A stretch of DNA of 64,000 nt from Escherichia coli (GTDB taxonomy: Bacteria > Pseudomonadota > Gammaproteobacteria > Enterobacterales > Enterobacteriaceae), in the NCBI RefSeq assembly GCF_024502345.1, contig NZ_JALDNN010000001.1. One strand, written 5' to 3'. A program made the translations under genes and the position numbers. The notes beneath the pieces are model-generated. The model saw only the letters and a list, made by a program, of their open reading frames with translations, was not told the origin of the DNA and made no database searches. Positions 19,404 through 21,158 of the stretch are shown here, piece by piece; within the stretch, counting starts at the first letter, position 1, and each line of letters opens with the position of its first letter.

Positions 19404-19418
19404 GGCGCTCTGACACCA

Positions 19419-19922
19419 TCACCCAACAATAACCGTCAGCGCATGATTCCCTTGTCGCAGCATACGTCGATACGCGCTAATCAGCTTTTCCATATCAAGC
19501 ATGATCGAAGCAAAGAGTTGCCCCTCTAACTCTTCTGAAAAGGTCACTCCCGGATAAATCTCCATTTCATTGAGTCGCTTAATGGAAAACTGTTTACGCA
19601 GCTCACTTCGATCCAGTGATTCCAGTCGGTCGATTGTCGCGGCTAACTCCTGATTCCAGGTCAATCCCAGGAAGCCATCTATGCCATCTTCGAGGCTGTG
19701 TTCACCAAGCACGGCACGACTCAGCGGATCATTCTTCGCGGGATCAAAAGCAGAGGTGCCTGTCAGCCCAAAGTGTAAAAAATCCCAGCGTTTGTCAATA
19801 TCCAGTCGGCGTAATCCTGAAAGCGTGTCATGTATATTATCCATCAAAGGTTTTTCAGTAGACTCAAGCAGTTGGTTAATCTTTTCTGAGTCAATTTCTG
19901 CAAAATAACCAATCATTCCCAT
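19419..19922 (-). CDS. yfbM: DUF1877-family protein YfbM
   Basis: 167-aa ORF MGMIGYFAEIDSEKINQLLESTEKPLMDNIHDTLSGLRRLDIDKRWDFLHFGLTG...; matches K-12 YfbM in sequence and length, from memory. Confidence 0.85.
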   Translation of the reverse strand: MGMIGYFAEIDSEKINQLLESTEKPLMDNIHDTLSGLRRLDIDKRWDFLHFGLTGTSAFDPAKNDPLSRAVLGEHSLEDGIDGFLGLTWNQELAATIDRLESLDRSELRKQFSIKRLNEMEIYPGVTFSEELEGQLFASIMLDMEKLISAYRRMLRQGNHALTVIVG

Positions 19923-20047
19923 TTATTTTTCCTCCATTGAATTTTATGTTTCGCATCTTAAAACAGACGAGGGAAAATAAAATGTACATGTCGCTGTTTC
20001 TGGACCCGCCTCGAGAAATTTTTATTATTTACTGTTGTGTAACAAGG

Positions 20048-20654
20048 TTATAACACCATCTGAGCCATTTTCTGATAATTCAATCTGTCTGCTGTATCAC
20101 CGGGCAAGTGGTATTGTTTATTACGATAAAAAGCGGTGTCAGTAATCATTACGGCGGGAATATCGTGTTGCCAATAATTCAGGTGGTCAGAGAAATCAAT
20201 ACCGGGAATAAACCATGGGGCATTCATAGAATAAACAGATAAATCCCGGGATGATAACAATGCCGTTTTTACCTGACGAACGGCGTTGATATCCTGTATT
20301 CTGCCGACCAGGCAATAAAGTCCCCCCGATCGGGATAAAGCCAGGACATTGCGGGTAAGGGTAATCCTGGCTACCAGGCGCAGAGTCGTAATAGCCAATC
20401 GGGGACGCCCTGCGCGGTAACTCTGGCACCGCTACTGACAAAGAACTCTTTTATATACTCTACGGACCTATTCAGATTATCAATATTGTCGGCATTACGT
20501 GGATGCACAGTTTGTGTAAGATAACGAACTGTTTTTTCTAATTGCTCAGGACTGACGTGTCGGGGCGTTGGCGGTAATGCAGTGACCCAGGGTTGGTAAA
20601 AATAATCAGAGGGAGTGAAATCAGAAACAATATAACAAAAGGAATTTTTTCCAT
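20048..20654 (-). pseudogene. yfbL: degraded yfbL-like M28-family peptidase remnant (frameshifted, probably internally deleted)
   Basis: Reverse strand from the ATG at 20654 encodes a signal-peptide-like MEKIPFVILFLISLPLIIFTN, then stops after 38 codons. Peptidase-like sequence continues in a second frame (SPEQLEKTVRYLTQTVHPRNADNIDNLNRSVEYIKEFFVSSGARVTAQGV) and a third (…FIPGIDFSDHLNYWQHDIPAVMITDTAFYRNKQYHLPGDTADRLNYQKMAQMVL, ending at 20048). The total span is about 600 bp, against roughly 970 bp for the 323-aa protein as I remember it. Confidence 0.6.
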
Positions 20655-20992
20655 ATATAAATTATCAATAAAAGACGTTATTTTATCATTATTTATAATG
20701 AGTTATGAGTATTTGTTTTATTACGGTTGTTAGATCTATACAAAAAGTATCTTTTACAGTGGCTTCGCTATTTTAAAAAGGAATTCATATAAGGAAAAAT
20801 ATAATTATGTTATTTATTGGCAGATTGAGTTGACAGGGGGCAGAACTCTGAGGGTAAGAAAAGTCAGCAACAACAATCCACTACATCAACAGACCAGCAA
20901 TCGCGTGCCGAGATACGCTGGAAATACCCGAAGATTGAACTGGCGGATGGTGTGACTGACATCAGTCAGTGATGACTGTTTAGCAAACTATG

Positions 20993-21026
20993 TTCGACCA
21001 GTCAGCATATTTGCTGACTGGTCGAA
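20993..21026. other. perfect 14-bp-stem inverted repeat in non-coding AT-rich segment
   Basis: ttcgaccagtcagc-atattt-gctgactggtcgaa; a second shorter inverted repeat (tgactga-ca-tcagtca) lies just upstream at about 20955-20970. Confidence 0.6.
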
Positions 21027-21158
21027 TTAATTAACAATGATGTTAACTTACTCTTTTTCCTGATGCTCTATTTTTGCGTTGTGAGTGTTTTATTTCTAAG
21101 TCTCTATAATAATCATTGATATTTGCATCGCCATATTTATCTAAATAACAATTCCTGT

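Follow-up and report, generated by a model that had tools for sequence, protein, structure and literature searches.

In Escherichia coli K-12, the gene order from nuoN onward, as annotated in a K-12 derivative, is nuoN, yfbP, yfbO, yfbN, yfbM, yfbL, yfbK, elaD, rbn, elaA, elaB and menF. Two reports bear on single genes of this series. A published survey found elaD to be absent from all of the B2 strains it examined (PMC12575377), and a preprint describes that Keio (K-12) deletions of yfbL and yfbO resist phage N4, with plasmid copies restoring sensitivity (10.1101/2025.09.29.679331). A full-text literature search found no paper describing polymorphism of the nuoN-elaD locus. Here we analyze this locus in a 64,000-nucleotide stretch of an E. 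coli contig (NZ_JALDNN010000001.1), referred to as the window. A preliminary description of it had given the K-12 gene order, correctly as the annotation confirms, and K-12 is not arranged as the window is; the differences had been read as the decay of a plastic accessory spot. We find instead that the window very probably represents one of two major structural alleles of the E. coli nuoN-rbn accessory locus. It is an old deletion arrangement that over one in three sequenced E. coli share, O157:H7 and B/BL21-type strains among them.

Results

The nuoN/yfbM spacer and the yfbNOP island

The nuoN gene (+ strand) ends at 19352 and the stop codon of yfbM lies at 19419, which leaves the 66 bp that the preliminary description had counted between them. 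This spacer (19353-19418) contains the nuoN terminator (19376-19403, + strand), a stem of CCGCCGA and TCGGCGG followed by a T8 run that can be read directly from the sequence. The yfbM gene itself (19419-19922, - strand) is an intact open reading frame of 167 aa belonging to DUF1877 (Pfam PF08974, E = 1.7e-35), and at the DNA level it matches the other E. coli loci in the comparison with 96.6-99.8% identity.

No yfbN, yfbO or yfbP is present in the window, as had been noted, and the BLAST alignment to K-12 breaks at 19400/19418. The K-12 sequence diverges right past the terminator hairpin, where its yfbNOP block, with a GC content of 39.8%, begins immediately and replaces about 16 bp of the spacer. 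The spacer is kept in loci L003, L010 and L011, two of which are outgroups, and its empty form (…GGCGGTTTTTTTTGGCGCTCTGACACCATCACCC…) is a conserved feature of E. coli without yfbNOP, of E. whittamii and of one further Escherichia species. Among the 5,426 complete E. coli genomes that form the base of all frequencies given here, the block occurs in 1,015 (19%), in 985 of these at an identity of at least 99%. Strain ETEC6335 carries a variant island in the same site, comprising a yfbO-like gene, a yfbN-like gene and a gene for an SMI1/KNR4 protein.

These alignments indicate that the 66-bp spacer corresponds to the site of the K-12 island in its empty state, and that yfbNOP is a separate low-GC island that was probably not lost in the window's strain. 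The absence of the three genes had been taken as decay; a low-GC island found in only 1,015 genomes, with its empty site kept across Escherichia species, argues against this. In one non-coli Escherichia genome (L009) yfbN adjoins yfbM, and given that arrangement the opposite view, of an ancient island with many subsequent losses, is still conceivable.

Remnants of yfbL and yfbK

The yfbL gene survives as a pseudogene on the - strand (20025-20654), the remnant of an M28 metallopeptidase gene recognized from alignments and from tblastn pieces in three frames. The frameshifted remnant of roughly 600 bp reported earlier measures 630 bp, with one internal deletion of 326 bp and five small indels. 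With the intact genes of L003 and L006 as reference, to which the window is colinear up to 20400, the large deletion has its junction at 20399-20401 and takes out residues ~88-196 and with them the first half of Peptidase_M28, a domain that spans residues 95-317 when the protein is intact. At the junction, CCAAT-C-GGGGAC, the microhomology amounts to only 3-4 bp (AAT/CAAT). The further deletions are of 1 bp at 20310, 20351 and 20598, of 7 bp at 20059 and of 6 bp at 20643, and because of the deletions the remainder is split over three frames in tblastn. The window thus holds neither the uninterrupted reading frame nor the whole Peptidase_M28 domain of a functional YfbL metallopeptidase. The 1-bp deletions at 20310 and 20351 are common to the window and O157:H7, and the 7-bp, 1-bp (20598) and 6-bp lesions are common to the window and strain 361 (L002) and not found in O157:H7, a pattern of sharing that fits the stepwise decay of an old pseudogene.

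Between yfbL and elaD, the preliminary description had reported a non-coding AT-rich stretch (20655-21158) and no sign of yfbK. The stretch is indeed AT-rich (33.5% GC versus 51.6% for the whole window), but it is not non-coding to its end, as 21043-21158 is coding sequence of elaD. It is made up of the yfbL/yfbK promoter region, three scraps of yfbK, a hairpin and the 3'-terminal 116 bp of elaD, and 20655-21042 contains no ORF of note. The former divergent promoter region (20655-20788) aligns to the yfbL-yfbK intergenic region of L003 with ~68% identity and forms the upstream part of a hyperdivergent segment, termed type b below; the block 20655-20792 has a GC content of 21.7%.

Contrary to the earlier reading, yfbK does persist, in three + strand pieces of 122, 22 and 40 bp spanning 20789-20972. 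The 5' remnant (20789-20910), identified by alignment and by tblastn to YfbK residues 20-40, covers the signal peptide and Q-rich linker, with the start codon changed from ATG to ATA and the lipobox destroyed. The internal scrap (20911-20932) matches yfbK of L003 in 20 of 22 bases and is flanked by deletions of 1,350 and 213 bp, and the third piece (20933-20972, found by BLAST) is the last 40 bp of the gene with its TGA stop at 20970-20972. All of the vWF_A, VWA and YfbK_C domains (residues 111-577) of the functional vWA lipoprotein are deleted. From 20933 to 21669 the window is colinear with positions 5950-6687 of L003 at 97.6% identity (BLAST). Between the convergent yfbK and elaD lies a hairpin with a perfect 15-bp stem (20993-21026), detected as a self-complementary BLAST match and identical in every elaD-positive locus compared; it is probably a bidirectional terminator.

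Interruption of elaD by IS903

The elaD gene (- strand) is split in two. Its 5' part, codons 1-201 (22727-23331), was located by tblastn, with 200/201 residues identical to ElaD of L003, and its 3' part, codons ~199-406 (21043-21669), by alignment and by tblastn in two frames. The element between the two parts is the adjoining IS903 of the preliminary description, which we place at 21670-22726 (+ strand, 1,057 bp) from its ends and target duplication, read in the sequence, and its transposase ORF. The 9-bp duplication GAGTAGGGG stands at 21661-21669 and 22727-22735, and the PYS codons are duplicated with it. The true stop codon of elaD is at 21043-21045, although the ORF seems to end at 21159: with one base missing from a T6 run (T5 at 21229-21233), the tail 21043-21158 is read out of frame. 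None of the five genomes aligned has the shortened run, which may also reflect an error in sequencing. With IS903 after codon 201 and the frameshift near codon 343, the window lacks the continuous frame of 403-407 codons that encodes the ElaD CE-clan deubiquitinase.

Recurrent inactivation of yfbL and yfbK

One scan of species-representative genomes returned four outgroup loci (L009-L012). None of the four contains elaD, which therefore looks like a gain within E. coli; a gain of this kind agrees with the survey of B2 strains (PMC12575377). Both yfbL and yfbK are intact in Escherichia sp. MOD1-EC7003 (L009). In 'E. coli' SCPM-O-B-8794 (L010), which was returned separately from the other Escherichia representatives, yfbL is intact and yfbK is deleted with a 3' junction of its own. 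E. whittamii (L011) has its own large internal deletion in yfbL, the E. albertii type strain (L012) has the stop mutation W216stop in yfbL, and both have an intact yfbK. A shared origin of the yfbK deletions in L010 and E. coli was considered and rejected: the 5' breaks fall within ~10 bp of each other, but the 3' breaks differ and some sequence missing from L010 is retained in E. coli, and we treat the two as probably independent events.

Other E. coli genomes add a frameshifted full-length copy of yfbL (ETEC6335), IS1 copies that lie within yfbL or take its place, a yfbM cut short by IS679, and a deletion of yfbK together with most of elaD. The insertion sequences at the locus in other genomes are IS1, IS679 and IS903B in annotated loci, and ISVsa5 and IS2 as named in search tables. 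Taken together, the lesions point to separate losses of yfbL and of yfbK in other species of Escherichia, and for yfbL to four or more independent knock-outs across the genus. Where the two genes are intact, their dN/dS is 0.13-0.39, compared with 0.04-0.07 for yfbM.

We wondered whether the loss of yfbL, and perhaps of yfbK, might be adaptive. If N4-like phages depend on YfbL as a host factor, knock-outs would be repeatedly selected and dead alleles would be frequent. In favour of this are the complemented N4 resistance of the yfbL and yfbO deletions (10.1101/2025.09.29.679331), the repeated independent inactivation (the 326-bp deletion, E. whittamii, E. albertii, ETEC6335 and IS1) and the raised dN/dS of intact yfbL. 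However, recurrent loss and raised dN/dS are predicted equally well by weak purifying selection on a dispensable gene, and the phage result is that of one preprint, obtained in K-12 with one phage and with no natural allele. We consider adaptive loss rather doubtful. It is more economical to suppose that an accessory gene under weak constraint is lost time and again; the data do not separate the two accounts.

Two alleles of the segment beside the yfbK deletion

The 256-bp segment from the yfbL start codon to the 5' break of yfbK (20655-20910) exists in two sharply distinct classes. Type a (yfbK present) and type b (yfbK deleted) are 69-73% identical to one another, and identity within the classes is 90-99.6% for type b and 92-95% for type a, so that each class is 0.4-10% diverged. 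The flanks of the segment are 93-100% identical and have no two-class split. The Jukes-Cantor distance between the classes is ~0.38, against 0.39 between E. coli and E. whittamii, and it exceeds the synonymous divergence of 0.04-0.20 within E. coli at the locus. When the fixed differences were polarized with two outgroups, nine were derived on each branch and 20 were ambiguous. Derived changes are thus equal on both branches, and decay of type a alone does not account for type b. A divergence of ~30% is more than such decay would produce within E. coli and calls for an additional assumption.

The segment is found as type b in 2,582 genomes, compared with 2,533 that have the yfbK deletion junction. 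No intact yfbK was seen on a type-b segment, and none of 40 sampled matches to type b has a yfbK annotation, so that no candidate for the ancestral allele emerged. The four outgroup species were tried as donors of type b and rejected; they are 69-76% identical to it, none is closer than type a, and no donor is named. The simplest reading is that type b is an old or introgressed allele. One could go further and suppose that the yfbK-deleted allele is ancient, either introgressed from another Escherichia lineage or a long-lived polymorphism, and that phage-driven selection keeps live and dead alleles at intermediate frequency. The divergence of type b, taken with the four or more independent yfbL knock-outs in the genus and the N4 resistance described in the preprint, would suit such a history, in which both the 'gene present' and the 'gene dead' allele are maintained, yet as a whole it strikes us as distinctly unlikely.

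Frequency of the deletion haplotype

The yfbK deletion junction (…GCGTGCCG/AGATACGCTGGAAATACCCGAA/GATTGAAC…, with slashes at the breaks) is present in the window and in 2,533 of the 5,426 complete genomes (47%), as determined with a query of 161 bp across the junction and at least 80% coverage for a match; many of the matches are at 100% identity. The body of yfbK is present in 2,539 genomes. For yfbL, 322 bp from inside the deletion were found in 3,311 genomes and so are absent from 2,115, and the deletion junction is covered by a 64-bp query in at most 2,035, which sets the frequency of the 326-bp deletion at ~2,035-2,115 genomes (37-39%). The window carries this widespread form of yfbL, with the junction CCAAT(C)GGGGAC and the 1-bp deletions at 20310 and 20351. 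Among the strains with the window's haplotype are O157:H7, O103:H2 12009 and T7 Express, and the B-derived strain B-LamR has the same type-b segment.

These frequencies decide against a strain-specific or narrow-lineage origin, in which yfbK, yfbL and yfbNOP decayed recently, together with IS activity, in a Shigella-like erosion. We regard this origin as very unlikely. It would account for the insertion of IS903 in elaD, whose junction was found in 0 of the 5,426 genomes, for the elaD frameshift, and for the yfbL lesions that strain 361 has and O157:H7 does not. Against it, the defining junctions occur in 37-47% of the complete genomes, across many hosts and serotypes, the empty yfbNOP site is kept across species, and the same layout exists in genomes without any IS at the locus. 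Recent decay is refuted for yfbL, yfbK and yfbNOP and stands only for the two elaD lesions: the IS903 insertion, searched for in the 5,426 genomes, and the frameshift, searched for in the five genomes aligned, are the only features not found elsewhere. The yfbL and yfbK lesions are no mark of this strain; the preliminary description had made its comparison to K-12, the holder of a minority layout. The picture of a plastic, degenerating accessory spot does apply to the locus overall, with six lesions in yfbL, yfbK reduced to scraps, IS903 and a frameshift in elaD, and lesions in other genomes, but not to this strain in particular.

The stretch 20655-21042 might alternatively have been co-opted to encode a novel small protein or a regulatory RNA, such as the hypothetical protein of 41-44 aa called there by PGAP. 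In L006 and numerous other genomes, PGAP places one of 44 aa (WP_001376971.1) on what is left of yfbK, and the window has a TTG-started ORF of 41 aa at 20830-20955. The frame of this ORF is not that of yfbK, and it crosses both deletion junctions. Shortly past its start, type-b alleles differ from one another by indels of 1, 2 and 16 bp, so that the frame is not preserved, and no ORF is kept across these alleles. A search of 19300-21400 against Rfam 15 at a permissive E-value returned no family at its gathering threshold, only two sub-threshold chance matches with scores of 23.1 and 22.3 bits versus thresholds of 70. In a promoter and terminator scan, site counts were no higher than in shuffled sequence; this simple scan also missed the obvious nuoN terminator and so carries no information. 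Co-option is extremely unlikely. An assembly or sequencing artefact has a negligible chance of explaining the locus, since thousands of complete assemblies made independently repeat the deletions to the base and IS903 is whole at both ends and flanked by its 9-bp duplication, even though the single-base difference in the elaD T-run is of the kind that sequencing errors produce.

Discussion

From the structures, junctions and frequencies observed here, we infer an order of events, a mechanism for the deletions and a phase of neutral decay. The ancestral Escherichia layout would have been nuoN-yfbM-yfbL-yfbK-rbn. In non-B2 E. coli, elaD would have been gained between yfbK and rbn, and in the K-12 lineage the yfbNOP island would have inserted just past the nuoN terminator, an event that presumably never took place in the window's strain. 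On an old divergent allele, yfbK was probably shortened by the 1,350- and 213-bp deletions. Three genomes (L006, L014 and L015) have yfbK deleted and yfbL intact, and the yfbK deletion therefore appears to have come first, with the 326 bp of the yfbL M28 domain lost later on the yfbK-deleted background. Illegitimate recombination or replication slippage may have produced the yfbL deletion, and a microhomology of 3-4 bp fits either; the small indels would have accumulated in the dead gene afterwards. The haplotype seems then to have been inherited and spread by recombination over a large part of the species, as the named strains and the mosaic patterns of identity suggest. Last, and in the window's strain alone, elaD would have received IS903, with its 9-bp target duplication, and the 1-bp homopolymer frameshift.

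The window's arrangement is accordingly ordinary pan-genome variation, a common haplotype that has long been sequenced. K-12 is a poor yardstick for the "expected" content of an E. coli genome at this locus, where yfbNOP is a minority feature and an intact yfbL-yfbK pair is one of two roughly equally common states, and scans that flag departures from K-12 will rediscover the haplotype repeatedly. The biological interest is modest, and depends on the phage link being true. Some 37-39% of E. coli are naturally without YfbL, the N4 host factor reported in the preprint, and if that link holds, this could affect host range and choices in phage therapy.

Comparison with known loci

The window shares the nuoN-yfbM-yfbL-yfbK backbone with the elaD-negative layout of phylogroup B2 (L005) and of the non-coli Escherichia loci (L009-L012), in which, unlike the window, yfbK abuts rbn and there is no elaD. 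With K-12 (MG1655/BW25113, b2269-b2276; L001) it has in common the flanking genes nuoN, yfbM, elaD, rbn, elaA, elaB and menF, in the same order and orientation, and a yfbM that is 98.8% identical. K-12 differs by its yfbP-yfbO-yfbN island of 2.6 kb and in that yfbL (972 bp) and yfbK (1,728 bp) are both intact, whereas the window has no yfbPON block and retains 630 of 972 bp of yfbL and ~184 of ~1,750 bp of yfbK; the yfbL/yfbK promoter segment of K-12 is only ~69% identical to the window's.

An element of the IS903 group (IS5 family) is expected to be ~1,057 bp long and to generate a 9-bp target duplication. The insertion in elaD agrees with IS903/IS903B in its length of 1,057 bp, its duplication and its matching terminal inverted repeats (GGCTTTGTTGAATAAATCG), and its transposase matches entries annotated IS903B. 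Strain Z1323CEC0002 has an independent IS903B in elaD, ~330 bp from the window's insertion site, which is unique to the window.

Strains TUM13867 (L006), MRSN346638 (L014) and O166:H15 (L015) share the yfbK junction and a type-b promoter segment that is 90-93% identical to the window's, but differ from it in keeping yfbL as a full ORF of 972-975 bp. The window's haplotype is also that of the O157:H7 strain F6294 (L008) and strain 361 (L002), which align to 19300-21669 as one BLAST piece at 95.9 and 98.9% identity, respectively. In both, the deletions of yfbK and yfbL have the window's junctions, with yfbL annotated by PGAP as frameshifted, and unlike the window neither has IS903 in elaD; in the O157:H7 strain elaD is intact and yfbL is without the 7-bp and 20598 lesions.

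A two-class segment beside the yfbK deletion

Between the yfbL start codon and the 5' break in yfbK (window 20655-20910), the locus shows a sharp two-class polymorphism that is tied to the yfbK deletion. The window falls in the yfbK-deleted class together with strain 361 (L002), Z1323CEC0002 (L004), O157:H7 F6294 (L008), three loci with yfbL intact (L006, L014 and L015) and locus L016, whereas the yfbK-positive class holds the K-12 derivative (L001), a locus with both genes intact (L003) and the elaD-negative layout (L005). Identity across the segment is ~70% between the classes, as opposed to 90-99.6% within them and 93-100% in the flanks, and this between-class divergence is as deep as that between species. 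The derived states among the fixed differences are found in equal numbers on both class branches.

In many genomes, the PGAP annotation includes a 44-amino acid "hypothetical protein" (WP_001376971.1) that spans the junctions of the yfbK deletion (L006, 4783-4917; corresponding window ORF, 20830-20955). Because its frame differs from that of yfbK and is not conserved, it is probably a spurious gene call.

Independent lesions in yfbL, yfbK and elaD

Both yfbL and yfbK have been inactivated independently in other Escherichia species. The yfbL gene of E. whittamii carries an internal deletion of its own (L011, ~9668-9896), and that of the E. albertii type strain carries a W216stop mutation (L012, 8927-9900). 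In SCPM-O-B-8794, yfbK carries a separate deletion (L010, 8541-8988), the 5' break of which lies within the Q-rich linker, at most ~10 bp from the E. coli break.

The elaD gene of the window is frameshifted near codon 343 by a T6-to-T5 homopolymer change (21229-21233), which was not found in five other aligned genomes and may be a sequencing error. Across strains, elaD has also received two independent IS903/IS903B insertions at sites ~330 bp apart, one in the window (21661-22735) and one in Z1323CEC0002 (L004, 5452-6508); the elaD::IS903 junction of the window was present in 0 of 5,426 complete E. coli genomes.

Mobile elements and alternative islands

In other strains, the AT-rich locus is the landing place of many different IS elements (L015, 1-1938; L017, 1753-2985; search hits H19, H24, H83, H100 and H104). 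The yfbM gene is cut short by IS679, IS1B stands in place of the yfbL remnant, and copies of IS1, ISVsa5, IS2 and IS903B are located in yfbL or yfbNOP. The nuoN gene is followed by a clear terminator hairpin with a T8 tail (window 19376-19403), although a simple terminator scan did not report it.

Alternative low-GC islands occupy the nuoN/yfbM junction. The K-12 type carries yfbP-yfbO-yfbN (L001, 1440-4000), and the ETEC6335 type carries yfbO-like and yfbN-like genes with a gene of the SMI1/KNR4 family (L013, 3501-5389), members of which are frequently immunity proteins of polymorphic toxin systems. The ETEC6335 variant is ~83% identical to the K-12 island.
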